Notes under the pieces: model-generated | Seen by the model: the letters and a program-made list of their open reading frames with translations, nothing else | Databases searched by the model: none | Told to the model about the DNA's origin: nothing | Translations under genes and position numbers: made by a program | Origin: an uncultured Planctomycetales bacterium | GTDB lineage: Bacteria > Omnitrophota > Gorgyraeia > Gygaellales > Profunditerraquicolaceae | Length of the DNA stretch: 64,000 nucleotides | Reading direction: 5' to 3' | NCBI GenBank assembly: GCA_964645795.1 | Contig: CAZYCL010000002.1 | Coordinates: forward strand, 16,352 to 80,351 | Part shown: positions 6,224-33,675 of the stretch, piece after piece | Layout: every line of letters starts with the position of its first letter | Position numbering within the stretch: position 1 is the stretch's first letter

Positions 6224-7489
6224 CTAGGACCCTATCCTTTTATGGATCTCTTTTTCATAAGGCTTAAGCTCGCCGATCAAGGCCAGGTTTATCTTGTCTT
6301 TCTTAAAAAGGTACTCCGCGGCTTCCTTTATGTGATGGCGGCCGATCTTCTCTACTTCCCGGTTGATCTCCTGCAGGCTGTAAGTCTTGTCCAGCGCCAC
6401 CGTCGAATCCCCTATCCAGAGCATGTGGTCCATGGTGTCTTCCAAGGCAAGGCGCAGCTGCCCCACGTAATAGTCCTTGGCGCGCTTGAGCTCATCCGCA
6501 GTTACGGGCTTCTCCCGCACCAGCTCAAGCTCTTTTAGTATGAGGCTCAATGCCTGGGCGGTCTTTTTATTATCCGTGCCGGCGTGCACCAGGAATGCCC
6601 CGGTATCGGCGTAGCGCTTAACCTGCGTGCCGATCTCGTAAGCCAGCCCGCGCCTCTCCCTTACTTCTTCGAACAGCCGGCTGGACATATTCGCGCCCAA
6701 TATAATATGCAGGAGCGAGACAGCATGGTGCAGCGGATGGCCCCGCTTGAAACCATGAAAACCTATGGCCATATGAGTCTGGGCGGTTTTCTTATGCAAA
6801 AACTTTACCTGCGGCATATCCTGGCTCTCTATGGCTGAGAAGAAAGTCGCCTTCTCGCTCTTTTTGAGGCCCGAGAACGCCTGGCGGCTTAGCTCAAGCA
6901 ACATCTCGTGTTCAAGGTTGCCTGCTGCCGCGATCACCAGATGCGAAGAGGAGTAATGCTGGTTTCTATAGGCCGCCAGGTCTTTGCGGGATATCGAACC
7001 AACGGTGGATTTCCTGCCGATGATCGGACAGCCCAAAGGCTGGTCCGGCCAGAGCAGCTCATCGAGCAGCTCATAGACATGGCTTTGCGGCAGGTCTTCA
7101 TACATCTTTATCTCTTCGAGGATCACCGTTTTTTCTTTTTCTATGTCGGACGGCTTTAATAAAGGATGCAGCATCATATCCGAAAGTATCCTGAACGCAA
7201 GCCTAAGATATTTAGCGGGGACCTTGGCCAGATAACAGGTATTTTCTTCCGAGGTAAATCCGTTGAGGTTTCCGCCGATGCCTTCGATCTCCTCTTTTAT
7301 CCTGCGGCAGGAGTATCTGGGCGTGCCCTTGAAAAGCATGTGTTCGAGAAAATGCGAAATGCCCTTCTGCTGGAGCGTCTCAAGACGGCTGCCCACGCGC
7401 ATCCACAGCCCAAGGGTGACCGATTGCATCAAGGGCATCCTGTGGGTAACCAGGGTCACGCCGTTTGCCAGCTTGGTCTTTCTATACAC
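6224..7489 (-). CDS. M16-family zinc peptidase (pitrilysin-like)
   Basis: Inverted zinc-binding motif HFLEHMLFKGT (HxxEH) near the N-terminus; 421 aa. Confidence 0.85.
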   Translation of the reverse strand: MYRKTKLANGVTLVTHRMPLMQSVTLGLWMRVGSRLETLQQKGISHFLEHMLFKGTPRYSCRRIKEEIEGIGGNLNGFTSEENTCYLAKVPAKYLRLAFRILSDMMLHPLLKPSDIEKEKTVILEEIKMYEDLPQSHVYELLDELLWPDQPLGCPIIGRKSTVGSISRKDLAAYRNQHYSSSHLVIAAAGNLEHEMLLELSRQAFSGLKKSEKATFFSAIESQDMPQVKFLHKKTAQTHMAIGFHGFKRGHPLHHAVSLLHIILGANMSSRLFEEVRERRGLAYEIGTQVKRYADTGAFLVHAGTDNKKTAQALSLILKELELVREKPVTADELKRAKDYYVGQLRLALEDTMDHMLWIGDSTVALDKTYSLQEINREVEKIGRHHIKEAAEYLFKKDKINLALIGELKPYEKEIHKRIGS

Positions 7490-12080: not shown

Positions 12081-12653
12081 CTATCCTTTTATTTTGAGAA
12101 AATTAGCCAACAGGTCCTTGCCGGCAGCAGTCAGTATCGACTCCGGGTGAAACTGCACTCCCCAGACCGCGAAGTCCCTGTGTTTTAGCCCCATTATCTC
12201 TTTATCCGCACGCGTATAGGCAACGACCTTCAGACACGAAGGCAGCCCTTTTCTTGCGACGACCAGCGAATGATACCGCGTGGCCTCAAACGGGTTATCA
12301 ATGCCTTTAAAGATACCTTTTGCGTCATGATAGACAAGCGAGGTCTTGCCATGCATAAGGCTTTTAGCCGATGAGATCTTTGCCCCGAAAACATGGCCTA
12401 TTGCCTGGTGCCCAAGGCAGACGCCTAGTATCGGGACCTTGCCCGAGAACTCCCTTATCAGCTCGCATGAGATCCCGGCATTCTCGGGTCTACCCGGCCC
12501 GGGGGAGATAACTATCTTGGCCGGCTTTAGCCTTGCGGCCTCCTCAACGGTTATCTTATCGTTCCTGACGGTCTTAACCCTGGCGCCCAGCTCTCCCAAA
12601 TACTGCACGAGGTTGTAGGTAAACGAATCGTAATTATCTATCATCAATATCAT
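12081..12653 (-). CDS. trpG: Anthranilate synthase component II / class I glutamine amidotransferase (TrpG/PabA type)
   Basis: GATase catalytic triad context ([10 protein letters not shown], and H with E near the C-terminus). The start is set at the [11 protein letters not shown] Met, which abuts the murA stop. Confidence 0.85.
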
Positions 12654-22093: not shown

Positions 22094-22870
22094 CTATCTG
22101 GTCAAAAGCCTCTTCTGGACCTTCTCGATGAAGTTATCGATCGCCTTATTTTTGGGGTCAAGCAGGTGCGCATCGATAGCCTGACTTAAAGCCTTTACCT
22201 CTTCTCCTTTTTTGAAGCTTTCCTTTGCCATGGTAAAGAGGTCCCTGGACTGCTCATGCGTATCCTTTCGCAGCACCTCTTTCTTCTGCTCGACTTCGCG
22301 TATCAGCCCCAGGACCTGCCTTTCCTTGCTTTCTTCCGGGCTGACAGATGTAATCAACCCTATATCGACGCATCTGGCCCTGGCCTTCTCGGTCCAGGGG
22401 TCATTGGCTAAGCCAAGGTCGGCTCTTTTCTTCCAATAATATGCCGCCTTGTCCAGGTCGCGTTTAGTCTCGTAGAAAAGCGCAAGGTTTGAGTAGGCGC
22501 TTAGGAAATTCGGGTCCGTCTTTATCGACTGCAGATATGAGTTTTCCGCGCGCTCTAACTCTCCGTTAGCCTCATAGATGATACCCAGGTCATTATAAGC
22601 TATTGCGTAGGCCGGATCAAGCTCTACCGCTTTCTGATAATAGGCCAGGGCCTTGCGCAGATCTCCCAGATTCTGAACCTGGAGCCCCTGCTGCCGGTAA
22701 ATCCTGGCCTGCTCCTGCTGCATCGAAAGCTGCGGCTCGCTCCTGTCCGTTTTTGTGCCGCCGGCAACGGCCTCGGCAGAAAACAGAAAAAAGAAGATCA
22801 GCGGCGCATATCCGCAGGCAAATAATGAAGTTATAAATTTTGTTTTCTTGGGGAGGGGCGGAATGAACAT
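22094..22870 (-). CDS. TPR-repeat protein with an N-terminal signal or lipoprotein-like sequence
   Basis: Hydrophobic N-terminus with a Cys (LFACGY) followed by several 34-aa TPR units (AYYQKAVELDPAYAIAYNDLGIIY...). Confidence 0.7.
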   Translation of the reverse strand: MFIPPLPKKTKFITSLFACGYAPLIFFFLFSAEAVAGGTKTDRSEPQLSMQQEQARIYRQQGLQVQNLGDLRKALAYYQKAVELDPAYAIAYNDLGIIYEANGELERAENSYLQSIKTDPNFLSAYSNLALFYETKRDLDKAAYYWKKRADLGLANDPWTEKARARCVDIGLITSVSPEESKERQVLGLIREVEQKKEVLRKDTHEQSRDLFTMAKESFKKGEEVKALSQAIDAHLLDPKNKAIDNFIEKVQKRLLTR

Positions 22871-22933: not shown

Positions 22934-23848
22934 TTATCTGGCTTCAAGGCCTTGCACGCAATCTATGACTGAACCATCTTTCCTGAATCCGAGCCGGTAC
23001 GCTGCCACTTTTGAGGCGATTTGCGAACAAAGAACGACTTGCTTGGCCAGCCTTTCCCTGTCCCAGAAGGCCGCAAAGATATACGAAGAAAGCGTTCTGA
23101 AGGCGCAAGCCGCAGGAACTCCGGTGATCCTGTTTTTGCGGCAATGGTAAATGAAAAAGATCTTTTTAAGAAGGGCGCTGCCGGTTATGGATGCGGAGTA
23201 ATCGCTGAAGTTGCCGTGCCAGGGCGTGCCGTGCATAAGAAATCCGCCCTTGCCTGCGGTGATCAGCACGCGGTCGTCGTTAAAAACGCGGGCATTCGAA
23301 GACCTCCCCCATATACCGGCGATGGTAGATTTGCCTGCCCCGGAACGGCCGCAGAAGATCATGCCGCTGGCTTTCTTTTTGTCTATCCCGGCGCAGTGCA
23401 CGATCACTCCGCCCCTATCCGCATAATAACCGATGAGCATGATATGGATGCAATCGTAAATGAGGTCTTCGCACGACCAACCAAAGCGTTTTTTACCGCC
23501 GTCCATATAAACCGCGGCCTTCCTGTAATCCGGGGTTAAGACCATCACCTTCTTCCTGGCGGCAAGGCGCTGCCGGAAGATAAAATACCCGTCTTTTTTG
23601 AATGCCTGCCAAGCGGTCTTGTCCCTTAAAGGATGGATAGTGGTAAACACGGGTTTAGCGCCTTTAAGCAGGTCTGACGGCAGGTCGCTCTTGGGCATTA
23701 TCCGCATACTGCACTGCGAAGGCTGGCGCCCCCGGTAAATAAAGCGCGGGTACTTGAGGAAAGCCGGCGCATCTTTGATGTCGGAGCGGGCACGCTCGCT
23801 CTCCAGCCGCAACACAACATCCCCGATCTTAAGCCTTACTGTTTTCAC
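22934..23848 (-). CDS. HprK-fold P-loop kinase-like protein, last gene of the peptide-maturation operon
   Basis: P-loop GRSGAGKST preceded by GVIVHCAG and followed by NDDRVLI, matching the arrangement of the HPr kinase C-terminal domain. The start is set at a GTG that overlaps the upstream TGA as GTGA. An alternative ATG at 23944 would overlap rSAM-3 by 100 nt. Confidence 0.6.
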   Translation of the reverse strand: MKTVRLKIGDVVLRLESERARSDIKDAPAFLKYPRFIYRGRQPSQCSMRIMPKSDLPSDLLKGAKPVFTTIHPLRDKTAWQAFKKDGYFIFRQRLAARKKVMVLTPDYRKAAVYMDGGKKRFGWSCEDLIYDCIHIMLIGYYADRGGVIVHCAGIDKKKASGMIFCGRSGAGKSTIAGIWGRSSNARVFNDDRVLITAGKGGFLMHGTPWHGNFSDYSASITGSALLKKIFFIYHCRKNRITGVPAACAFRTLSSYIFAAFWDRERLAKQVVLCSQIASKVAAYRLGFRKDGSVIDCVQGLEAR

Positions 23849-24894
23849 GATGCCGTCCTTTGCGCGCAGGCCTGCGCCAGATCGCAATAATAGGCAACCG
23901 CTTTGTGCATATCGCCGCTCTCCAGAAGCGCCCTTCCCGGACAACGCCTGCAGCTATCCAGAAACTGGCAGGGCGCGCACGGTGAATCTTTTCTAAAATC
24001 CTGGCTGATAAGCCGGCTCAACGCCCTCATCCCTTTTTCAATCCCGTACCTGCCCAGATCGAAGCTGGGGGTTCTCACGGCAGTGCAGAGAAACATCCTG
24101 CCGCAGGGATCTACGCCAAAGCCGTCTCTTGCGGCATTGCACCTGAATAGCCTGCGGTTGCGGCCTTTGGGAGCTTGGTTTGCGCCCCTGCAAAACTCCG
24201 TATCCAGGCCCAATGAACCGTCCAAGCGGATTAAACTCGACGCATCCAGGCGGAGCGCGCAGACAGAGCTGTCGCGGTCAAGACGCGGCAAGATCAATGA
24301 CGATACCTGGTAGCCACAGCCGAGGCCGGCGGCAAAACTTTTGATCCGGTTCAACTCCTGATGGTTATCCTTTAACGCCATGCTTTTTATCTTAAAAGCG
24401 ATACCCGAAGCTTTAAGCATCCCGATCGAAGCCATGACCCTTTTGAGCACTCCCCGCCCGCCGGATATCCGGTCCAGCTTATGCGGATCAAGGCTGTTAA
24501 GCGTCAGCTCCACGCAAAAAGGCTTATGCATCTCTAAGACCCCGATCACCTCTTTATCGATAAGCATGCCGCTGGTGAATACCGTAATGATAAAACCCTT
24601 GCTGTGGGCATAAGCATAAATATCCGCAAAGTCGCTTCTGGCTAAAGGGTCTCCGCCGGTAAGGCCCAGCCAGAGTATGCCGTAATCATAAAGCTTATCC
24701 AGGACGGCGAACACCTTCTTTGTGGAAAGCTGGCGCCTTATAAATTGCCTGCGGTTGTAACAGTCGCTGTAACAATACCGGCAGTGCAGCGGGCAGGCAA
24801 AGGTCAGCTCAAACTGGCAGAGGGCCGGCCGCCCAAGCCTGCGGCTTGCCTTATGCGCCTGAAAGCTGAAATCTTTATACTCGAGATTGCGCAT
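23845..24894 (-). CDS. Radical SAM/SPASM-domain peptide-modifying enzyme, paralog 3
   Basis: CPLHCRYC (CxxxCxxC) near the N-terminus and a Cys-rich C-terminal SPASM region (CNAARDGFGVDPCGRMFLC...CAPCQFLDSCRRCPGRA). The start is set at the MRNLEYKDF Met, homologous to the starts of the two paralogs. Confidence 0.8.
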   Translation of the reverse strand: MRNLEYKDFSFQAHKASRRLGRPALCQFELTFACPLHCRYCYSDCYNRRQFIRRQLSTKKVFAVLDKLYDYGILWLGLTGGDPLARSDFADIYAYAHSKGFIITVFTSGMLIDKEVIGVLEMHKPFCVELTLNSLDPHKLDRISGGRGVLKRVMASIGMLKASGIAFKIKSMALKDNHQELNRIKSFAAGLGCGYQVSSLILPRLDRDSSVCALRLDASSLIRLDGSLGLDTEFCRGANQAPKGRNRRLFRCNAARDGFGVDPCGRMFLCTAVRTPSFDLGRYGIEKGMRALSRLISQDFRKDSPCAPCQFLDSCRRCPGRALLESGDMHKAVAYYCDLAQACAQRTAS

Positions 24895-25972
24895 CTTTCT
24901 TCTTGCGGACAAGGTCCCTGGTAAACTGCGCCTGCTTACGGTAATACGGGTCGCAGCTGAAAAAACTGCCGTCATTAAGGTAGGCCCTGGCCGGACACCA
25001 GCAGCAGTAATCGAATACATCGCAGCTCAAACACTCCCAATCAACAGGCGGTTTTATGCGGTCACAAGAAGCCTTGAGCTCCTGCCATCCGGCGGCAAGC
25101 CCTCCCCGCAGTATATCGTAGCCCGGATAATCTATCTGAGTACAAAAGTTCATCCTGCCGCAGGCATCCACGCTAAAATGCGATTGCGCCACGCCGCAGT
25201 TAAAGATGCTTTCTTTGAACCTGCGCCTTGACACAACCGGCCCGTTCTTTTTGCCTGTGCCCGGATTATTGAACATTTCCGGATAGCAGGCCCGGCGCAA
25301 TAAATAGCTCTCTTTGGGCGAAAGCATCCGGCGCATATGCGTCTTTGAACCGTCCAGGCGCGGCAAGAGCTCATTATCCAGGCGATAAATCACGCCGAGC
25401 TTGCGGGCAAAGGCGTTGACCTTGGGTATCTGGGATACATTATCCTGCATGCCGCAGGATTTTAGGGAAAAAGGCACCTTGTTCCTGCGCAATAATCTTA
25501 TGGCCCTGAAGACCTTTTCCGCCGAGCCCCTGACCCCGCTTATCGAATCAAATATTTTTTCATCCATCGCATGGACCGTTATGTCGACCTTATTCAAAGA
25601 TAACCTGCCCAGGGCCGCAGCCGTCTTTTCATCGATGAGCGAGGCATTGGTCAGGACGATCGTCTGCAAACCCAGCCTTTTGGAGTAATCGAGTATATCG
25701 AAGATATCTTTTCGTAAAAAAACCTCTCCCCCGGTAAATCCGACAAAGATGACCCCGATATCCCTCATCTGTTCCAATATAGAAAATACCTGCCGCCCGG
25801 AAAGCTCTTTGCCGGCCTTTAGAGACCTTCTTTCCGGAGGCAGGTAACAATGGAGGCATTGGAAGTTGCAGCGGTAGGTCAGCTCAAAGGCCGCCCTCAA
25901 CGGCAGCCTTTGCTCTAGCGAGACGCTCGATAGGCCCCTTACAAACTCCTTATAATCAAGCTCTTTTATCAT
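24875..25972 (-). CDS. Radical SAM/SPASM-domain peptide-modifying enzyme, paralog 2
   Basis: CNFQCLHC motif and SPASM cysteines (CGVAQSHFSVDACGRMNFC...CLSCDVFDYCCWCPARA). It overlaps paralog 3 by 20 nt. Confidence 0.8.
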   Translation of the reverse strand: MIKELDYKEFVRGLSSVSLEQRLPLRAAFELTYRCNFQCLHCYLPPERRSLKAGKELSGRQVFSILEQMRDIGVIFVGFTGGEVFLRKDIFDILDYSKRLGLQTIVLTNASLIDEKTAAALGRLSLNKVDITVHAMDEKIFDSISGVRGSAEKVFRAIRLLRRNKVPFSLKSCGMQDNVSQIPKVNAFARKLGVIYRLDNELLPRLDGSKTHMRRMLSPKESYLLRRACYPEMFNNPGTGKKNGPVVSRRRFKESIFNCGVAQSHFSVDACGRMNFCTQIDYPGYDILRGGLAAGWQELKASCDRIKPPVDWECLSCDVFDYCCWCPARAYLNDGSFFSCDPYYRKQAQFTRDLVRKKKDAQSRV

Positions 25973-27039
25973 TATCCTTTTAGGTCCAAACCCGAAAGCT
26001 GCCTCTTTCTGGCCTTAGCCAGGCGGCAGTAGTAGGGCACCGGCGCATGGTTATCTGCGGTCTCCAGATACGCGCGCTCAGGGCACCAACTGCAGTAAAC
26101 CCGCAGCCTGCAGCCTGAGCATTTTGACGCCTTGCGAAAAACCTCTTGGCTTAATCCTGCCAATTTTTTATAAAAAGCCCGCTTAAAGCCTGTCTTTAGC
26201 AGGCTTGATGAACGCTTGGAGCTTATATTGCAGAACTGCAGCCTGCCGTCGGGAGTCAGGAAGAACGAATACTGCCAGCTGTTGCAAAAGTACAGGAACC
26301 TGCCGGGCCTGGACCTTTTGCGTATCTGATGGCTGCTCTCGAGTAACTGCTTGCACATCTGGGCATCTTTTTCTTCTATAGAAATTATCTCTTTGGGCTC
26401 CAGCCTCCACAGGCAAGGCGTTTTATCTCGGTTAAGGCGCGGGAAAACAAATGCATCGAATTTGAACCTCCCCTTTCCCAAAAGCTTTTCGCTGAAAGCC
26501 TTAAGCCTGAGAACGTCATCTTTATTATGCTTTAGGCCGATGCATTTTACCACTGCGGGTATCCCTGCCTTTTTCAGGGCACCAAGCGCAGTCACGCTTT
26601 TATTAAACGAGCCACCAACCCCGGTAACCGATTCATGCGTTGCGGCGCTAGAACCGTAGAGGCTCACCTCTACCGCAAAAGGGGGATGCTGCCTGAAAAG
26701 ATCAAGGAGCTCATTGTTTATAAGCGTAGCATTGGTGAAGACCGTGACCAGAAAGCCTTTCTTTAAGGCGTACCTGTAGATGGCCGGGAAATCTTTATGT
26801 AAAAGCGGCTCTCCTCCGCTAAAGGTTAGCCACAGGCAGCCTCCGGACCTTATATCATCGAGGATCTTTTTCCATCGGCCAAACCCCAGCTCCCTCAAAG
26901 ATACCAGCGGCTTACCATGGTCACAGGTAAAACAATGCACGCATTTAAGGTTGCAGCGGTAGGTAAGGTTAAGGGTGGCTTCCAACGCTCCTTTATTCTG
27001 GCAAGCGCAGGCAAACTGGCGGTAGGCTAACTCCTGCAT
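25972..27039 (-). CDS. Radical SAM/SPASM-domain peptide-modifying enzyme, paralog 1
   Basis: CNLKCVHC motif and SPASM cysteines (CNSWQYSFFLTPDGRLQFC...CSGCRLRVYCSWCPERA). Its stop overlaps the paralog-2 start as TAATG. Confidence 0.8.
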   Translation of the reverse strand: MQELAYRQFACACQNKGALEATLNLTYRCNLKCVHCFTCDHGKPLVSLRELGFGRWKKILDDIRSGGCLWLTFSGGEPLLHKDFPAIYRYALKKGFLVTVFTNATLINNELLDLFRQHPPFAVEVSLYGSSAATHESVTGVGGSFNKSVTALGALKKAGIPAVVKCIGLKHNKDDVLRLKAFSEKLLGKGRFKFDAFVFPRLNRDKTPCLWRLEPKEIISIEEKDAQMCKQLLESSHQIRKRSRPGRFLYFCNSWQYSFFLTPDGRLQFCNISSKRSSSLLKTGFKRAFYKKLAGLSQEVFRKASKCSGCRLRVYCSWCPERAYLETADNHAPVPYYCRLAKARKRQLSGLDLKG

Positions 27040-27049
27040 AGGAAAGGTA

Positions 27050-27331
27050 TTAAACCAACGCTTTTATGTCTTTGAGGTCTTTAAGGAAAGGTGTCAGGGA
27101 CGCATCCAGTGTTTCCGGCCCCACCGCGTACTCTCTGAGGATTATCCTTTTTATCGAAAAAATATCCTTTTTCCCGTCGAACAGGCTCCAGATGCGGGCG
27201 CCGACGGCATCGAGGGTGTATATACAGTCTGCGTCTTTTGAGCTCTTATAAAGCGGGACCAGGATCGTTTCCTGTCCGAAAACGCGGGTAACGACCTCCG
27301 GGTTTTTCTTATATATATAGGAGTCTTTCAT
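27050..27331 (-). CDS. PqqD-family peptide chaperone (stand-alone RRE domain)
   Basis: 93 aa with the typical PqqD pattern (...ETILVPL...YTLDAVGARIWSLFDGKKDIFSIKRIILREY...LDASLTPFLKDLKDIKAL). Confidence 0.7.
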   Translation of the reverse strand: MKDSYIYKKNPEVVTRVFGQETILVPLYKSSKDADCIYTLDAVGARIWSLFDGKKDIFSIKRIILREYAVGPETLDASLTPFLKDLKDIKALV

Positions 27332-27361
27332 TAGGCGGGTACTTGCGTCCGGCTCCGTTCT

Positions 27362-27583
27362 TTAGGTGTTTACCGCGCTTATCGAGCCGCCGGTACCGCA
27401 ATTGTTGATCCAGCACATCGAACCGACAGGATTATTGAATACCGACTTGGTACCGACCGAACAACAGGCCAGGACCGCCTGCTCGGGATTAAGCCTGATC
27501 CTGGTGATCTCTGGATTGCGCCAGGCTTTTTTGGCTGGGGACTTCTGCCTTGCGCTTCGATGACCGCTCTTGCTGGTCGGCAT
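27362..27583 (-). CDS. Candidate RiPP precursor peptide of 73 aa, with a basic PqqA-like leader and a Cys/Gly/Ser-rich C-terminal core
   Basis: The ATG is preceded by AAAGGA-N8. The leader segment KKAWRNPEITRIRLNPEQAV resembles the PqqA recognition motif W-x-x-P-x-h-x-x-h-R-L-x-x-E. The core is CCSVGTKSVFNNPVGSMCWINNCGTGGSISAVNT. The gene lies 30 nt upstream of the PqqD gene. Confidence 0.5.
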   Translation of the reverse strand: MPTSKSGHRSARQKSPAKKAWRNPEITRIRLNPEQAVLACCSVGTKSVFNNPVGSMCWINNCGTGGSISAVNT

Positions 27584-27624
27584 AGATGATCCTTTGTAAT
27601 AAGGCTGGATGCTTACCTAGTTAT

Positions 27625-27653
27625 ATTTTAATGTATGGCCAAATAAAGGTCAA
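27625..27653 (-). promoter_or_regulatory. Near-consensus sigma70 promoter (TTGACC-17-TAAAAT) driving the precursor/PqqD/rSAM/kinase operon
   Basis: The reverse complement of 27648-27653 is TTGACC and that of 27625-27630 is TAAAAT, with an exact 17-nt spacer. The precursor ATG is about 40 nt downstream. Confidence 0.45.
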
Positions 27654-27660
27654 GTATAAA

Positions 27661-29847
27661 TTATAGCAGCGGCGGCATCTGGAGCGCCGGATGTTTTACT
27701 TTTTCAAGGTATGTCAGAAGCCCGCTGGATGTGGTAGCCACCGTCTCATCGGCAATGCGCTCCAGCAGGTCCGGTACGCCTTCTTCCTGGCAGCGCTTCT
27801 TGAGCTTATCGGACAAGACCTCTTTTAGCTCTTTAGGCATCCAGACCACGCGCCTCAAGCCTCCCTCTGCCCGGATGAACTTCTTGCTTACTACATAAAG
27901 CTTTCCCACCCCCAGGAACCCCGGCGTTTGCACGCCTCCGCCGACCGAACCGGCAAGAGTGGTAAAATTCATACCGCAGGGGGTCATGCCTACGTAGTCG
28001 CGGTTGACCACGATCACCCCGTTAGCTTCGGGTATTATCGCCACAATGCACTCAAAGCAGCCGCATGAAGACTGGGGTCCTTCCATCATCGAATACATGC
28101 TGACCTGCTCTACGGTCTTGTTGGATTTGGAGTAGATAAACTCATCTATGCTCTTCCATTCTCCGATGCGCTCATCGACCAGCCCGTTTTTGATTATCGG
28201 CTGGTTCGGGCCGGTAGGCATGATCTCAAATGATGCCTTGGCGTCAAGCCATGAGTAGGCCCCGCAAAGCCCCAGCCTTTCCGGGGTAATAATGCAGACA
28301 TGATTCGGGGCGAACGACTGGCACAAGAGGCATGAGTAAAAAGTATCGACGCTCTCGTCGGTCATCCCGGCCAGGCGCTCATCCCGCTCATCATAGGAGA
28401 GCTTGGCCTTCTCCAGCAGCTTCTGGACATCCTCCTTGCCGGTATATAGCTTGACCTGCACCTTATCGACGATACTGCCGTACTCCTGATGGAGCATTGC
28501 ATGAAGGATCACCCCGATATGCTTGAGGCGAAAGCCCTTGGCAAAGGCGTCCTTGGAGATCCTTATCCAGTTCATGTCGCGCTGGCCTACGTGCATAATG
28601 CCCATGGCGTAGTTGATAAAACGGTGGATCTGCCTTTCCAGTATGGGCTCGAAATCCTTCTGGGTCTTCCTGCCTGCCACCTCGACGATTATGGCCAGGG
28701 GCATGGACTTTTTTCCCGGCGCCAACTTATCGATATCTGGCCCTATGATCTCTATCTTGGCGTCATCGACTTCATTTAGCTGGCGGCAGTAGAGGTATTC
28801 GAAAGAAAGCTCGCCCTTCCCGCCGAATTCGACATAGAGCTGTTCTTTCCTCACCCTCTCGCCTTCGAATGCGGCCGCGTATGATACCGGGACATCGATG
28901 TTGGCGACTTTTACCTTCAGACCCCGCACCTCGATGCACTTGGCGGCAAGCTTGCCGTAATCCTTTTCGACAACCAATGCCTCGTATGAAGTAGTTTCGA
29001 TCTTCGCCAGCTCCGGCACATCCAGGTCCGATATGATCGGAAAACCCAGGGCCAGCGCCCCTAATCCCGTGGCCACGATCACCTCATCGACGTGGCTTAA
29101 AAGCACTACAAACGCCGGAACCTTTTGACGGCTATACTCCAGGATCCTGGCCCACTCTCCGCTCTTAAGCCCTCCATACATCAGCGGCGCTCTTATCGCC
29201 CAGTTGACCGCGTATATCGCCGAAAGGTAGTCTTGGCCGAGAGGCACGATATAATTTTCCAGCCCCATCTCCACTTTCTGGTCTTCCAGCTGCTTCTTAA
29301 GGCTCAAGCCGTCTTTGCTCCCGGCCAAAAGACAGACAATGCTCCTGGCCTGAAAATCCCGCACAAGCCTTACTGCCGAATCCGCATCTTTGGCCGGACC
29401 AAGGATCACCGCGATACCGGCGATGCGTCCGTCTACCAGCTGGATACCCAGAGACCGCAGCAGCGTATCCGACAAGAACCCTGCGCAGCCCTCCTGCGGG
29501 TGGCGTTTTTGCGCATACTCCAGCGCCGCCAGGAGCTCTTCGCACAAAAGCGTTGCCAGCCCTTTGTTAAGCATGCCCGAGAGGGCACCCAGATATAATC
29601 CGTTTGAAGCAGGTTTATTCGAAGATAATTTTTTTGCGTCATCCAGGATCCCGCGGCAATCGCCGAGGCTCCTGGCTTCTCTGTGCAAAAGGGCGTCGGC
29701 CAAAGGCAGGTAGTAATTGGTCTGATCGAAGCTCAAGGGGTCTTGGCCGCCTTTCTCTTTTATGCGCCTATCCAGCGCATCTTCGGTAAGGCCCAATATC
29801 GCCTCTGCCCCCCTGGTCCCCAGTTGCACTAAGATGTCTGTTGACAT
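27661..29847 (-). CDS. acsB: Acetyl-CoA synthase (CODH/ACS beta subunit, AcsB/CdhC type)
   Basis: 728 aa with extended similarity to ACS, including the A-cluster cysteines (CLLCQSFAPNHVCIITPERLGLCGAYSW and the Cys-Gly-Cys motif SSCGCFEC). Confidence 0.9.
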   Translation of the reverse strand: MSTDILVQLGTRGAEAILGLTEDALDRRIKEKGGQDPLSFDQTNYYLPLADALLHREARSLGDCRGILDDAKKLSSNKPASNGLYLGALSGMLNKGLATLLCEELLAALEYAQKRHPQEGCAGFLSDTLLRSLGIQLVDGRIAGIAVILGPAKDADSAVRLVRDFQARSIVCLLAGSKDGLSLKKQLEDQKVEMGLENYIVPLGQDYLSAIYAVNWAIRAPLMYGGLKSGEWARILEYSRQKVPAFVVLLSHVDEVIVATGLGALALGFPIISDLDVPELAKIETTSYEALVVEKDYGKLAAKCIEVRGLKVKVANIDVPVSYAAAFEGERVRKEQLYVEFGGKGELSFEYLYCRQLNEVDDAKIEIIGPDIDKLAPGKKSMPLAIIVEVAGRKTQKDFEPILERQIHRFINYAMGIMHVGQRDMNWIRISKDAFAKGFRLKHIGVILHAMLHQEYGSIVDKVQVKLYTGKEDVQKLLEKAKLSYDERDERLAGMTDESVDTFYSCLLCQSFAPNHVCIITPERLGLCGAYSWLDAKASFEIMPTGPNQPIIKNGLVDERIGEWKSIDEFIYSKSNKTVEQVSMYSMMEGPQSSCGCFECIVAIIPEANGVIVVNRDYVGMTPCGMNFTTLAGSVGGGVQTPGFLGVGKLYVVSKKFIRAEGGLRRVVWMPKELKEVLSDKLKKRCQEEGVPDLLERIADETVATTSSGLLTYLEKVKHPALQMPPLL

Positions 29848-30746
29848 AACGAGCTTCCCCTTTCGAGGCTGGCGATAAGGTTTTTGGCTACGATGACCCC
29901 TTCATTGCAGGACTCCTCCCAGCTCTTGCTTTCGCCCAGCTTATCCTCCAGGCAACAGACGCTGCCGCAGGCAAAAATGTTATCGAGATTGGTATGCATG
30001 AGCTCATCCACGATGATGTAACCGTCTTCAGCCCTGATCTGCGAGTCTTTCAGGAATTCAGTGCAGGGCTTATAGTTGCCGGCAAAAAGTATTAGGCTGG
30101 CTTCTATGGCCTTGCCGCTGGATAGCTTGTAAGCTTTTAACTCCGCCCCCTCCCCGATGATCTCGGTAAGAGTGGAATCGGCAATCCACTCGGAGTTCTG
30201 CGGCAGCTCTACGTCGGCCGGTTTGGGGGAAGCGATCACCTTTATGTGTTTGCCCGTCTTCGATATCGCCTCATGGAAGCCGAGGGCGGTCCCGGAGTCG
30301 GCGATAATGCAGACTGAGTCGATTATCTGCAGCCTCTCCCTCACAGCCTCAAACTGTTCCAGATTATATAAGGTAAAAACGCCGTTCTTGGTCTTGCCGG
30401 GGATATCGGGCAGGATGGTCTTACGGCCCGAAGCGATGATCAGAAAATCGTAGCTGATCCTGGTGTTATCCTTAAGGCAGACCCTTTGTTTATGCTCTTC
30501 GATACGGCTGACAGATGCGCCTTTTACCAGCTCTATATTGTTATCCCTGTAAAAAACCTCTTCGCAAAGAAAGAGGCCTTTTTCTTCAACAGAACCCCTT
30601 AAAAAATCCAGCAATAAACACTTGTTGTAAGGCAGGCAGTTTTCCTGCGTGAGCACCGTGATCTTGGCTGCTGCGGAAGAGGCGGCCAAGGTCTTGGCTG
30701 CCGAGAAACCGGCGGCGGAGTTTCCGATGATGAGTATTCTGTTCAT
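29829..30746 (-). CDS. FAD-dependent pyridine-nucleotide-disulfide-oxidoreductase-family protein (short, two-domain)
   Basis: N-terminal dinucleotide-binding motif ILIIGNSAAGFSAA and a second Rossmann motif VCIIADSGTALGF; 305 aa. Confidence 0.7.
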   Translation of the reverse strand: MNRILIIGNSAAGFSAAKTLAASSAAAKITVLTQENCLPYNKCLLLDFLRGSVEEKGLFLCEEVFYRDNNIELVKGASVSRIEEHKQRVCLKDNTRISYDFLIIASGRKTILPDIPGKTKNGVFTLYNLEQFEAVRERLQIIDSVCIIADSGTALGFHEAISKTGKHIKVIASPKPADVELPQNSEWIADSTLTEIIGEGAELKAYKLSSGKAIEASLILFAGNYKPCTEFLKDSQIRAEDGYIIVDELMHTNLDNIFACGSVCCLEDKLGESKSWEESCNEGVIVAKNLIASLERGSSLCQQTS

Positions 30747-30751
30747 GTTTT

Positions 30752-31621
30752 CTACAGGCCCGCGGCGTCCAGCACCAGGGGCACGTTTTTATTCCAACCG
30801 ATAGGCATGATGTGTATGCCCTGGCACAAAGGCCTGAACTGCCTGATAAGACGGCTGGCGATATCCACGGACCTGGCGACCTTATCCTGCGCCGACTCCA
30901 TCTCCCGGATAAGCCTCTCCGGCACGGTTATACCGGCGACGTTCTTGTTGACGAACCGCGCCATGGAGGCGGACTTTAAAAGAAGCACCCCGGCAAAAAC
31001 CTTGACCTTGAGATGCCGAATCTTGTTCATGAAAATCTCCAGGACCTCCGGTTCAAATACGGCCTGGGTTTGAAAGAACTCCGCTCCCGCGGCAACTTTC
31101 TTTTCCATTTTGATGATCTGCGGCTCCAAGGGCTCTGAGCCGGGGTTGACCACCGCCCCTACGCAGAACTTAGGCGCAATGCCCTCCAGCTTGTTGCCGT
31201 TCATGTCCCGGCCTTCCTGGATCATTTTTACAACCTGAAGCAGCTGCACGGAATCAAGATCAAAAACGGGCTTGGCCTGGGGATGGTCGCCGAGCATCGG
31301 ATGATCTCCGGTAAGTATAAGCAGGTTCTCGATGCCCATGGCCGCGGCGGACAATATATCCGACTGCAGCGCCAGGCGGTTGCGGTCGCGGCAGGCCAGC
31401 TGATATATCGGCTCCAGCCCTCTCTGTTTAAGGAGTGCGCTTACGGCAAACGAACCCATGCGCATCACCGAGCTCTGAAGCTCGGTGACGTTAATAGCGT
31501 CAACCCTGTCACGCAGAAGCTCGGCTTCTGCCAACACCAAAGACGGGTCGCTGCCCTTTGGCGGACCGATCTCGCAGGTAACGATGAAATCGCCCGACTT
31601 TATTCTTTCTTTGAATGTCAT
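30752..31621 (-). CDS. metF: Methylenetetrahydrofolate reductase
   Basis: MTHFR TIM-barrel signatures (FIVTCEIGPPKG, ILTGDHP). The start is set at MTFKERIKSG; the longest ORF reaches 31786. Confidence 0.8.
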   Translation of the reverse strand: MTFKERIKSGDFIVTCEIGPPKGSDPSLVLAEAELLRDRVDAINVTELQSSVMRMGSFAVSALLKQRGLEPIYQLACRDRNRLALQSDILSAAAMGIENLLILTGDHPMLGDHPQAKPVFDLDSVQLLQVVKMIQEGRDMNGNKLEGIAPKFCVGAVVNPGSEPLEPQIIKMEKKVAAGAEFFQTQAVFEPEVLEIFMNKIRHLKVKVFAGVLLLKSASMARFVNKNVAGITVPERLIREMESAQDKVARSVDIASRLIRQFRPLCQGIHIMPIGWNKNVPLVLDAAGL

Positions 31622-32268
31622 TGCGGCTGCGCGGCTATATTCTGACCTTGGTTGATCCTTGCCGATAATAACCTGTAGGCGTAAGCCTGGGCTACCATAG
31701 TCAGCGGTATGGTAATAAGCATCCCCAGCATAAGGGCCAGGAGCCCGGCGATATTTAGAAGCATAATGACCAGATACAGCACACAAAGCTGGCCCTTAAA
31801 ACCACTGGTAAGGACGCTGCTTTTCTTCAACGCTTCGATCGGCCCGGCTTCCTTATCTACCACCAGATAAGCGCTGAGGCTGAATTTTATGCCCCAGACA
31901 ATCCCGGGAACTATCAACAAAAATAATCCCAGTATCGTGATCAAACCCACCAGCAGCGAGGCAGCGAAGAATTTAAAGAATAGGCGCGCATGCATATAAA
32001 GGTCTTCCACTCTGACCTCTTGTGCGTCGTGAAGCTTGAGCGCTATCTTGATCAACCCGATCTGCATGACCATGCTCACCGCATACGAGAATAGCGCGAC
32101 TACCAGGCCTACCGGCTGACGGCCCTCGGACATCTTCTGCAGTATATAGGTCACCACCTCTACCGAGGCATAAACAAGTATCGTTCCCAGGACAATCGCC
32201 AGATTACCCCTGACCCTTGCCCAGGCAAAACTCAAAGCCTCGCCCACACGGATAACCTTTTCTTGCAT
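31618..32268 (-). CDS. Integral membrane protein of unknown function (6 predicted TM helices)
   Basis: 216 aa, strongly hydrophobic with repeated TM segments; no catalytic motif recognised. Confidence 0.5.
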   Translation of the reverse strand: MQEKVIRVGEALSFAWARVRGNLAIVLGTILVYASVEVVTYILQKMSEGRQPVGLVVALFSYAVSMVMQIGLIKIALKLHDAQEVRVEDLYMHARLFFKFFAASLLVGLITILGLFLLIVPGIVWGIKFSLSAYLVVDKEAGPIEALKKSSVLTSGFKGQLCVLYLVIMLLNIAGLLALMLGMLITIPLTMVAQAYAYRLLSARINQGQNIAAQPQ

Positions 32269-32285
32269 CTGGCCCTCCCTCTGGT

Positions 32286-33134
32286 TTATGATGACTGCGC
32301 AAGCTCGGCAGCTTCTACGAGATTGCGCATAAGCATGACCACCGTAAGCGGCCCGACTCCGCCGGGAACCGGAGTGATATAGGCGGCCCTGGTCCTGGCC
32401 GTCTCAAAATCCACATCACCAACTATATTAGCCCCCACCCGGTTAATGCCCACGTCAATTACCACGGCCCCCTCCCTGATCCAGGGACCCTTTATAAGAT
32501 GCGCCTTTCCTGCCGCCACCACCAGGATCTCTGCCCTTTCCACATGCTCCTGGAGCTTGTCCGCAAGAGACGTACCTATATGGCAGACCGTCACCGTAGC
32601 CAACCTCTCCACCAACATCAGGGCCAGAGGCTTGCCCACGATCTCGCTGTGCCCGACGATAACCGTCTCCTTGCCTTTAAGATCCATGCCGGTGGATTCG
32701 ATGAGCGCCATCACTGCCGCCGGCGTACACGGCAGGATGCGCCCCTTGCCAAAAACCAGCATCCCAACGTTGTGCGGATGCAGCCCCTCGACGTCCTTAT
32801 CTGCGGGTATATAGCGGCTGATCTTCTTCTGATCGATATGCGAAGGCAGGGGCATCTGGATGATCACGCCGTTTGTCTTCTTATCGGAGCCGGCTTTCAT
32901 CAAGAACCCGGCAAGCTCCTCCTCGCTTACGTCTGACTTAAAAGCATGGAGGCGGTAATCGATACCCAGCTCTTCGGCGCACTTCTCCTGACTCTTGACG
33001 TAACTGGCCGAACCGGGATTATCGCCTACCAGGATGCTTACCAGAACAGGCCTTGCCGCTAAAGCCCTGACCCGACAAGCAAGCTCCGCTTTGATCTTTT
33101 GGGCGATAGGCCTAGCCTCTAACAACTTTGCCAA
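32286..33134 (-). CDS. folD: Bifunctional methylene-THF dehydrogenase / methenyl-THF cyclohydrolase
   Basis: 282 aa with FolD motifs (SYVKSQEKCAEELGI, PGGVGPLTVVML). Confidence 0.9.
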   Translation of the reverse strand: MAKLLEARPIAQKIKAELACRVRALAARPVLVSILVGDNPGSASYVKSQEKCAEELGIDYRLHAFKSDVSEEELAGFLMKAGSDKKTNGVIIQMPLPSHIDQKKISRYIPADKDVEGLHPHNVGMLVFGKGRILPCTPAAVMALIESTGMDLKGKETVIVGHSEIVGKPLALMLVERLATVTVCHIGTSLADKLQEHVERAEILVVAAGKAHLIKGPWIREGAVVIDVGINRVGANIVGDVDFETARTRAAYITPVPGGVGPLTVVMLMRNLVEAAELAQSS

Positions 33135-33675
33135 TTTTCTCCTCCACCAGTTTCCTGGTTTTCTTTACCAGCGCCTCTTTGTGAAGCAGCTCTTTGCGCA
33201 CAGCCTTAGACAGCCTTTCGTCCTTTAACGCTTTAAGGTTTATCTCAACATTAAAGTAGGCTGAAGTAAAGGCTGCCTCCAGCATTATCGCCGCCACGGC
33301 TACATCGCTGATAAGGTTGACGTTCCCTTTTTTTATGAGGGCCGGGCACAGGCGCATGCCCTCATACGAAAGCCTGCATACCATAAGCGGAACATCCAGC
33401 GCATCCCTGATATTCCTGCTCTTATAAGCGACCACGTCAAGGTCGATGAGCCTGGTCAGCTCTTCGCGAAGCTTCTCGCAGCGATTAAGCATCTTCCTGA
33501 GATCCGCATCGTAAGAGGAGTAACGGGGCTTACCGACGGTGAAATTAACCACCATGCTGATAAGAGAGGCGCCCATTGCCGCGCTCATGGCCGCAGCCGA
33601 GCCGCCCCCCGGAGCGGCAAGCTTTGCCGCCAAATCCTCAAGGTAGGTGTTCAGATCCCGGTCCTTATAATCCAT
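33112..33675 (-). CDS. Cyclodeaminase/cyclohydrolase-domain protein (FtcD C-terminal-domain-like; methenyl-THF cyclohydrolase FchA type)
   Basis: 187 aa, all-helical, with the AAPGGGSAAAMSAAMGASL motif typical of the formiminotransferase-cyclodeaminase family. Confidence 0.7.
   Translation of the reverse strand: MDYKDRDLNTYLEDLAAKLAAPGGGSAAAMSAAMGASLISMVVNFTVGKPRYSSYDADLRKMLNRCEKLREELTRLIDLDVVAYKSRNIRDALDVPLMVCRLSYEGMRLCPALIKKGNVNLISDVAVAAIMLEAAFTSAYFNVEINLKALKDERLSKAVRKELLHKEALVKKTRKLVEEKIGKVVRG

Follow-up and report, generated by a model that had tools for sequence, protein, structure and literature searches.

A 64,000-nucleotide stretch of contig CAZYCL010000002.1 (hereafter the window), from an uncultured bacterium of the Omnitrophota, carries on its minus strand a short open reading frame (ORF) of 73 codons followed by six genes, among them those for a PqqD-family protein, three radical S-adenosylmethionine (radical-SAM) enzymes and a ScmC-family protein. 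This ORF probably encodes the precursor, that is, the substrate peptide, of a pathway for a ribosomally synthesised peptide with post-translational modifications (RiPP) encoded by these six downstream genes. An earlier note on this DNA had proposed a precursor peptide at this position, and the proposal has gained support, since homologous clusters share an ORF with the same leader beside PqqD, radical-SAM and ScmC genes.

The precursor gene (27362..27583, minus) starts with ATG and comprises 73 residues and a stop codon, its product being MPTSKSGHRSARQKSPAKKAWRNPEITRIRLNPEQAVLACCSVGTKSVFNNPVGSMCWINNCGTGGSISAVNT in the minus-strand translation; coordinates, length and translation coincide with those reported before. 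A Shine-Dalgarno sequence, AAAGGA (27590..27595, minus), can be read directly on the minus strand around the ribosome-binding site, CAAAGGATCATCTATG, at 6 nucleotides (nt) 5' of the ATG. The good Shine-Dalgarno claimed by the earlier note is thus present, but its spacing is 6 nt and not 8. In the 77-nt gap between the stop of the acetyl-CoA synthase gene and the precursor start lies a sigma-70-like site, TTGACC-17-TAAAAT (27625..27653, minus), which is a candidate promoter by consensus match alone (10 of 12 positions). At the other end, the precursor stops 30 nt 5' of the PqqD start at 27331, a distance that had been given correctly, and both genes lie in the same frame, separated by the stop and ten codons. 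No significant hairpin was found between them (z = -0.43), and an Rfam search gave no match within the 64 kb.

Codon-position entropy in the leader DNA of 132 unique family members is 0.52, 0.39 and 1.41 bits at positions 1, 2 and 3, respectively, and the invariant leader residues are encoded in these members by all their synonymous codons; selection therefore acts on the protein. These data bear on whether the ORF could have arisen by chance in an intergenic or regulatory region. It is true that family ORFs are frequently missed by gene callers, that in an identical locus from another sample (L141) the same ORF is found in the DNA and no gene was called there, and that only one homologue is reached by a word-index search. 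However, the synonymous-site pattern, the hundreds of homologues, a gapless orthologue with 58% identity, and the Shine-Dalgarno and promoter-like sites leave a chance origin with almost no probability. On this evidence the 73-codon ORF is to be taken as a real, translated gene.

The peptide consists of a leader, residues 1-39 (27467..27583, minus), delimited by position-specific conservation over 135 unique homologues, and a predicted core, residues 40-73 (27365..27466, minus), CCSVGTKSVFNNPVGSMCWINNCGTGGSISAVNT. In the leader, a basic N-terminus is followed by W21-R-N-P24-E-I26-T-R-I-R-L31 and then by the invariant N32-P-E-Q-A-V-L38-A39; the strong basic character had been described as unusual for a RiPP leader, and it is present, but it is a trait of the whole family. 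The core has the scaffold CC-x4-K-x10-C-x4-C-x11, with four Cys (15 residues between C2 and C3, 4 between C3 and C4, and a tail of 11), K46 at core position 7 and Thr as its last residue. The boundary between leader and core would fall before C40, in agreement with the end of family conservation and with the 34-residue core that had been delimited earlier, and a cut after V37-L38-A39 would fit the -3/-1 rule of the signal peptidase I class. Other processing signals were considered and discarded. Cleavage at the double glycine of GTGG, suggested in the earlier note, is rejected because this GG is not conserved in the relatives and the exporters of the family have no C39 peptidase domain; a signal peptide is rejected as well, the leader being hydrophilic and basic. 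A separate contig (L010, GCA_020047475.1), 99% identical over window positions 26990..27660, has a premature stop in PqqD and, within NPEQ, which is otherwise invariant, the change E34K; it represents either a sequencing error or a decaying copy.

A word-index protein search with the window peptide gave a single weak match, P0001 (68 residues), which has NPxITRIRLNPEQAVLAC in common with it and is flanked in four contigs by a PqqD gene and by rSAM-rSAM-ScmC genes (rSAM, radical-SAM). The neighbourhoods of PqqD homologues contained additional small ORFs sharing this N-terminus. Scans with back-translated patterns detected 48 loci in species-representative genomes, a set to which the window's own genome does not belong, and at least 146 in metagenomes, and 135 unique complete peptides were extracted from the scanned loci. 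With a profile made from the window peptide and P0001, 684 cluster representatives (clusters defined at 50% identity; E<=0.001) were retrieved among 1.84 billion proteins. The genome loci belong almost entirely to metagenome-assembled genomes (MAGs) of Candidatus Omnitrophota; the few others bear the labels Elusimicrobia, WOR-3, 'Planctomycetales' or delta proteobacterium, the taxonomy being that of the MAG record titles. Neither Pfam nor NCBIfam has a model matching the family peptides. A literature search returned no paper describing them, and no relevant one on SynChlorMet, NPEQAVL, or Omnitrophota in combination with SPASM, PqqD, ranthipeptide or sactipeptide, this absence not being a proof of novelty. 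The precursor family is large and apparently undescribed.

Conservation of the small ORF in homologous loci had been set as a test of the original proposal, and its outcome is positive. A true orthologue, P0108 (..LLWQDPVIARVKLSPEQAVLACCSVGSKIQVNDPLGSMCWAAKCGGVDSISATNT), is 58% identical to the window peptide over 60 residues without gaps; its core shares 21 of the 34 residues of the window core and also has NT at its end, and its gene order, peptide-PqqD-rSAM, is that of the window.

Throughout the family, the consensus is M-x-[K/R]-K-P-K-F-x-P-x-I-T-R-[V/I]-K-L-N-P-E-Q-A-V-L-[A/S/T]-C, and its near-invariant block, when either aromatic residue and either spacing are allowed, reads K-[F/W]-x(1,2)-P-x-I-T-R-[V/I]-K-L-N-P-E-Q-A-V-L-x-C. 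This is followed by C-x-C in 97 members and by CC in 35, and then by hypervariable sequence in which Ser, Gly and Thr abound. The total number of Cys is 3-4 in 118 of the 135 members. The C-terminal residue is Ser in 121/135 and Thr in 9/135 unique peptides (96% Ser/Thr), whereas Ser accounts for only 13% of core residues and occupies core position 2 or 3 in about 20-30% of members. The C-x-C subtype has F-x-P in the leader. In the CC subtype, to which the window peptide belongs, W, F or Y plus two residues precede the Pro position in 15 of 36 members, four Cys occur in 31 of the 36 cores, and Lys or Arg is found at core position 7 or 8; gaps are of 13-18 residues between C2 and C3 and of 3-10 between C3 and C4, with 9-13 residues after C4.

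The genes located downstream of the precursor are all on the minus strand. First comes a stand-alone RiPP recognition element (RRE) of the PqqD family, with 93 residues (27050..27331; Pfam PqqD, E=3e-10). It is followed by three radical-SAM/SPASM enzymes: r1 (25972..27039; 355 residues; Pfam Radical_SAM), with orthologues in most family loci; r2 (24875..25972; 365 residues), recognised by Pfam and also with orthologues in family loci; and r3 (23845..24894; 349 residues), for which an internal ATG is taken as the start, as in identical contigs. The 304-residue ScmC-family protein (22934..23848), a P-loop protein of the HPr-kinase/phosphoenolpyruvate (PEP) carboxykinase fold, starts, again as in identical contigs, at a GTG overlapping the r3 stop. 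The last gene of the operon encodes a TPR-repeat protein of 258 residues (22094..22870; Pfam TPR) that resembles, weakly and in the TPR part only, a UPF0489+TPR protein frequent in related loci, and its membership in the system is uncertain. The gap between PqqD and r1 is 10 nt, and the remaining genes abut or overlap; because these gaps are too short, no second ORF fits between the cluster genes, which agrees with the earlier view of the 73-codon ORF as the sole candidate substrate. As read from the sequence, r1, r2 and r3 each combine CxxxCxxC with the seven-Cys SPASM-type motif C-x12-G-x4-C...C-x2-C-x5-C-x2-C...C.

The neighbours of the precursor were counted within 6 kb in a non-redundant set of 48 loci, each at least 6 kb long. 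Of these loci, 41 contain radical-SAM/SPASM genes, about two in each; a ScmC homologue is present in 34 and PqqD in 30. A 155-residue peptidase of the signal peptidase I type (SpI) is encoded in 20, an ABC exporter in 19, a UPF0489/peptide-arginase-like + TPR protein in 14, a B12-radical-SAM enzyme in 12 and a U32 peptidase in 8. The commonest order is [SpI][TPR]-PqqD-peptide-r1-r2-ScmC-r3-ABC-SpI, in which r1-r3 are orthologous to the three window enzymes, and the distance from the precursor to the RRE gene is 0-40 nt in most loci, with roughly 60 pairs of adjacent PqqD and peptide genes. With 58 bits, the 155-residue peptidase exceeds the cutoff (51.85) of the archaeal-type signal peptidase I model, and it has a SipW match as well; the exporter is MsbA-like. 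Some relatives add genes for B12-radical-SAM enzymes, U32 peptidases, methyltransferases or peptide-arginase-like proteins, and NTP_transf_5 is found in a few related loci. In the contigs with the closest homologue of the window PqqD (L005 and L006) no family peptide was seen, which is uninformative because both end right after a pair of radical-SAM genes.

Several other observations concern these neighbourhoods. A protein of about 480 residues in L035 (3..1448), with homologues in 29 loci, has an N-terminal UPF0489 domain and C-terminal TPR repeats. Its UPF0489 domain weakly matches the FlmR/OhkR family of peptide arginases (E=8.5e-7, below cutoff), and the UPF0489+TPR protein could convert core Arg into ornithine. 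The NTP_transf_5 (PF14907) nucleotidyltransferase of a few family clusters (L007 15700..16282; L139 5248..6432) is also the partner that accompanies HprK-like kinases in pseudomycoidin clusters and in those of linear polyphosphorylated peptides (LPP), and its presence hints that the phosphate might be further decorated in some members. Genes annotated as '23S rRNA intervening sequence protein' (PF05635, a four-helix bundle) lie inside several clusters (L007 9385..9831 and 12300..12500; L037 9350..9724).

In seven of the 56 larger loci, duplicate contigs included, peptides are found without enzymes nearby, as might be expected if the ORF encoded a real small protein that is not a substrate but a regulator, an immunity factor or a chaperone of the cluster. 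Such a function is very improbable, given that the architecture (N-terminus conserved, C-terminus hypervariable, paralogues in tandem) is that of a RiPP precursor and not of a regulator, that the conserved part holds the RRE-binding motif and the gene adjoins the RRE gene in most loci, and that the window cluster offers no other candidate substrate.

Orphan precursors occur in L012, L027, L038, L039 and L052, where genes for PqqD, radical-SAM enzymes and ScmC are all out of reach. Five CC-type precursor genes are arranged in tandem in L012 (7194..11088), and about ten DAOWIN01 contigs, all from one MAG, carry family members. These orphan arrays and multi-locus MAGs suggest that precursors are processed in trans, like a combinatorial library; orphan precursor arrays are known in other RiPP families.

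As regards the recognition of the leader, the best NCBIfam match of the window PqqD is, below cutoff, the lasso-peptide PqqD chaperone, and the modelled PqqD domain of a relative matches TbiB1-leader complexes with a target template-modelling (TM) score of 0.84 and a root-mean-square deviation (rmsd) of about 2 Å. Discrete lasso RREs recognise [Y/W]xxPx[L/V/I/A/F/Y], a motif that is also present in LPP and pyrroloquinoline quinone (PQQ) leaders (Popov et al. 2026, PMC13381572). W21-R-N-P24-E-I26 of the window leader fits [Y/W]xxPxΦ (Φ, hydrophobic), so the published definition supports the previous identification of this segment as the one bound by PqqD-type proteins. The predicted RRE-binding segment extends from W21 to L31 (27491..27523, minus) and would comprise this motif and then a β-strand, ITRIR. 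In the six-frame translation of the window (about 128,000 residues) the pattern W..P.Φ..ΦRL..E occurs exactly once, while the shorter [YW]xxP.Φ, with 114 occurrences, is non-specific alone.

In an AlphaFold (AF2) model of P0118, a natural fusion of PqqD and precursor, ITRVK forms a β-strand, with a predicted local distance difference test (pLDDT) score of 68-69, the linker and the core on either side of it being disordered (pLDDT about 40 and about 30, respectively). This agrees with addition of the leader as a strand to the RRE sheet, albeit in an only suggestive manner. Proteins in which PqqD and precursor have been called as one in-frame product include P0118 (214 residues) and P0184, and come from loci L048, L072, L094 and L138. 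Their layout is PqqD, a Lys-rich linker of about 40 residues and then MKFRPEITRV..., the window having the reverse order. It would be unusual for an RRE and its precursor to form one protein, and these fusions may be artefacts of assembly or frameshift in low-complexity DNA.

The leader had been described as PqqA-like, and this description holds only for the recognition motif. Taking into account that the peptide lies beside PqqD and PqqE-like radical-SAM genes, it might be the precursor of a small redox cofactor, in the manner of PqqA or mycofactocin. Like PqqA, it combines an aromatic-x-x-Pro-x-hydrophobic motif with a PqqD partner; seven positions of the pattern W-x-x-P-x-Φ-x-x-Φ-R-L-x-x-E match PqqA of K. 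pneumoniae in one register, and hhalign chooses the same register when aligning WRNPEITRIRLN to WKKPAFIDLRLG. Besides, the radical-SAM enzymes weakly match PqqE and MftC, and the lack of peptidase and exporter in the window would suit an intracellular product. However, that alignment (against four PqqA sequences) has P=0.058 and a probability of 0.9%, and the comparison with precursor families called for by the earlier note gave no match of the window peptide or nine relatives to PqqA (PF08042/TIGR02107), MftA or other precursor models at E<=10. The peptide has no Tyr and hence no E-x3-Y, PqqE scores are of 68-96 bits against a cutoff of 381, and no true PqqE and no PqqB, PqqC or pqqF-type companions are found among the cluster genes. 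Moreover, the cores are hypervariable and multi-copy (up to five tandem genes per locus and about ten loci in one MAG), whereas the precursor of a cofactor should be conserved and single-copy, and many relatives encode a leader peptidase (20/48 loci) and an exporter (19/48). It is therefore scarcely credible that a PqqA-like cofactor is made here. The likeness to PqqA is real but generic, and marks the peptide as a ligand of a PqqD-type RRE rather than as a PqqA homologue.

The ScmC-like protein of the window does not differ from P0014 (100% identity), to which Pfam PF27840 (PF27840.1, precomputed) is assigned, as it is to nearly all ScmC-like homologues; the local Pfam copy gave no ScmC match for the window protein. 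Its NCBIfam matches to ScmC and HprK-related kinase B are weak and below threshold. Among 40 homologues, 36 match ScmC, 36 HprK_rel_B, 16 HprK_rel_A and 8 true HPr kinase. An AF2 model built with 40 sequences has a pLDDT of 91.6, and its top Foldseek matches are PEP carboxykinases (E=3e-7), a fold class that includes HPr kinase. A phmmer search against the PDB found no match, and a profile search, dominated by ABC-transporter P-loops, reached HprK/P 1jb1 (E=1.2e-3), with a matching region that extends beyond the P-loop; the protein was placed by the fold search. H151, G167-x-S-G-A-G-K-S-T175 (GRSGAGKST) and D191-D192-R193 are invariant or nearly so; we take such H...GxSGxGKST...DDR motifs to be those of HprK catalysis.

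From the family, its genomic context and the enzyme folds we infer the following mechanism. PqqD would bind W21-x-x-P24-x-I26 and the ITRIR strand, presenting the peptide to the enzymes. r1, r2 and r3 would then cross-link the fixed scaffold CC-x15-C-x4-C, Cys thioethers being the most plausible product, and ScmC would phosphorylate the C-terminal hydroxyl residue, Thr73 in this case, the alternative target being an internal Ser, as in LPP. Where present, signal peptidase I would remove the leader, with V-L-[A/S/T] before the first Cys, and the MsbA-like ABC transporter would export the product. Precedents exist for these roles. Homologues of HPr kinase act on paeninodin-type lasso peptides by phosphorylating their C-terminal Ser (PMC8498205), and the LPP pathway uses on its precursors an HprK-like kinase and also a SipW-like peptidase, to which the RRE presents the cleavage site (PMC13381572). 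Several Ser/Thr residues of the core had been pointed out before as possible kinase targets; the conserved C-terminal Ser/Thr would be a better candidate than the residues scattered internally, and appears to be the best one.

Several findings weigh against parts of this reading, the first of them concerning the leader. The apparent invariance of ITR..LNPEQ is inflated because it was partly imposed by the search patterns, which required ITR..LNPE and PEQA..C (the basic N-terminus, aromatic residue, Pro and C-terminal Ser were not required). In most members the motif is F-x-P, which lacks one of the two spacer residues of the canonical [Y/W]xxP, and the P0118 model is weak, with a mean pLDDT of 58 and three of the five models below 40. 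As for the enzymes, named radical-SAM maturase models of NCBIfam give 60-96 bits against cutoffs of 265-850, and neither a peptidase nor an exporter is encoded anywhere in the 64-kb window, and these two steps would therefore be encoded elsewhere in the genome or be absent. Finally, the window peptide ends in Thr and not in Ser, and the LPP kinase LppK phosphorylates an internal residue, core Ser3, and rejects a Ser-to-Thr change (PMC13381572).

Some of these findings would suit a genuine precursor with a different enzymology, in which the Cys form disulfides or bind metal, the radical-SAM enzymes carry out epimerisation, C-C or C-O cross-linking or methylation, and ScmC acts, like LppK, on an internal Ser close to the boundary of leader and core or is not a kinase at all. 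The window core has a Ser at position 3 (C40-C41-S42), the position on which LppK acts, no radical-SAM enzyme reaches the cutoff of any named family, and the additional B12-radical-SAM, U32 peptidase, methyltransferase and peptide-arginase-like genes of some relatives point in the same direction. We nevertheless consider this unlikely. The C-terminal Ser/Thr (96%) is far more conserved than any internal Ser, and 3-4 Cys at constrained spacing lie beside three SPASM enzymes, a combination that is the classic signature of sactipeptides and ranthipeptides.

Among known systems, that of LPP (Popov et al., Nat Commun 2026, PMC13381572), restricted to Bacillota, likewise has a discrete RRE and an HprK-like kinase, as in the window, and its precursors, one to several per cluster, also join a conserved N-terminus containing [Y/W]xxPxΦ to a highly variable C-terminus. 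However, LPP clusters have no radical-SAM enzymes, whereas the window cluster has three, and they contain a SipW-like signal peptidase I, an MsbA-like exporter and a nucleoside triphosphate (NTP) transferase, all of which are missing from the window cluster; signal peptidase I, MsbA-like exporter, NTP transferase, B12 enzyme and U32 peptidase are in fact absent from the whole 64 kb. The LPP leader, YxxPxVLxHQxIxFETxxS, has only [Y/W]xxPxΦ in common with ..ITRVKLNPEQAVLxC, and LPP phosphorylation takes place on core Ser3.

With paeninodin-type lasso peptides the family shares a C-terminal Ser/Thr, here near-universal, and an RRE whose fold is closest to lasso B1. In contrast to paeninodin, the family cores are Cys-rich and lie beside SPASM enzymes, and the window peptide ends in Thr. 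The macrolactam cyclase and the B2 peptidase of lasso clusters are absent from the window cluster and from the common family neighbours, and a lasso peptide was rejected as an explanation for lack of a cyclase. Sactipeptide and ranthipeptide clusters likewise have SPASM maturases with the seven-Cys motif, an RRE and short multi-Cys cores with fixed spacing, and thioethers may be expected here too. Unlike them, the window system reaches no named maturase cutoff, and three paralogous maturases are accompanied by a kinase-like enzyme and, in relatives, by a protease of the signal-peptidase type.

The same kinds of genes as in the window, namely ScmC, a PqqD relative and PqqE-like radical-SAM/SPASM enzymes, make up the SynChlorMet (SCM) cassette (TIGR04248-TIGR04251; ScmC, ScmD, ScmE, ScmF), to which, to our knowledge, no precursor is assigned in the TIGRFAMs description. 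That cassette has two radical-SAM enzymes and the window cluster three, and all window proteins fail the SCM equivalog cutoffs (bits/cutoff: ScmC 27.7/125, ScmD 20.8/100, ScmE 76.2/400, ScmF 68/400).

More distant ScmC cassettes, consisting of PqqD, one radical-SAM enzyme and ScmC, are found on high-GC contigs, one of them a circular contig of 4.5 Mb. Just upstream of ScmC there is a small ORF in L139 (7867..8052), L145 (5564..5725), L146 (6801..6998) and L147 (about 6834..7022). All four have the form [K/R]-P-Y-E-x-P-x-[V/I]-x-R-V-x-[L/I]-...-C...C...C...G-S, with three Cys and a C-terminal Gly-Ser, and in three of the four (L145, L146 and L147) the leader goes on, ahead of the first Cys, as x-P-[E/G]-E-[A/M]-V-[L/T]-G. 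A wider superfamily is therefore spanned by YxxPxV together with the R-V-x-L strand and a Ser at the C-terminus. Both the family peptides and the distant PYExPxVxRV...GS peptides are candidate substrates of SCM-type cassettes, the distant ones for cassettes outside Omnitrophota.

Beyond the cluster, a run of Wood-Ljungdahl-type genes (27661..33675, minus) lies directly upstream of the RiPP operon. It begins, next to the precursor, with acetyl-CoA synthase alpha/beta (27661..29847, minus; NCBIfam, 984 bits), beyond which come ORFs resembling a pyridine-nucleotide-disulfide oxidoreductase, methylenetetrahydrofolate reductase, FolD and a cyclodeaminase, named by eye from their translations.

The RiPP pathway proposed here is itself of a known kind; what appears to be new is the precursor family and the combination of the module known from LPP and paeninodin, exporter included, with SCM-type radical-SAM/SPASM enzymes. 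Taken as a whole, and with confidence evenly divided for and against, we propose that a combinatorial RiPP library exists in Omnitrophota and in a small number of neighbouring uncultured lineages, with one leader and many hundreds of cores, served by a SPASM trio, an enzyme of the HPr-kinase fold that acts on the C-terminal Ser/Thr, and a leader protease of the signal-peptidase type; that the same architecture, [Y/F/W]x(x)Px(I/V)xRVxLxPE(Q/E)AVL..C with a Ser at the C-terminus, would be the missing substrate of ScmC/SCM cassettes in other phyla; and that these peptides would make up a new class of RiPPs, both cross-linked by radical chemistry and phosphorylated at the C-terminus.

The finding gives a testable substrate for the widespread cassette of ScmC, PqqD and SPASM radical-SAM enzymes, and ties it to the LPP/paeninodin module, in which an RRE is combined with an HprK-like kinase and signal peptidase I. 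As gene callers frequently overlook these ORFs, the conserved leader is useful as a handle in genome mining; it also suggests that many cores could be processed by a single set of enzymes on heterologous expression. The family is large, extremely diversified and concentrated in Omnitrophota, an uncultured phylum.

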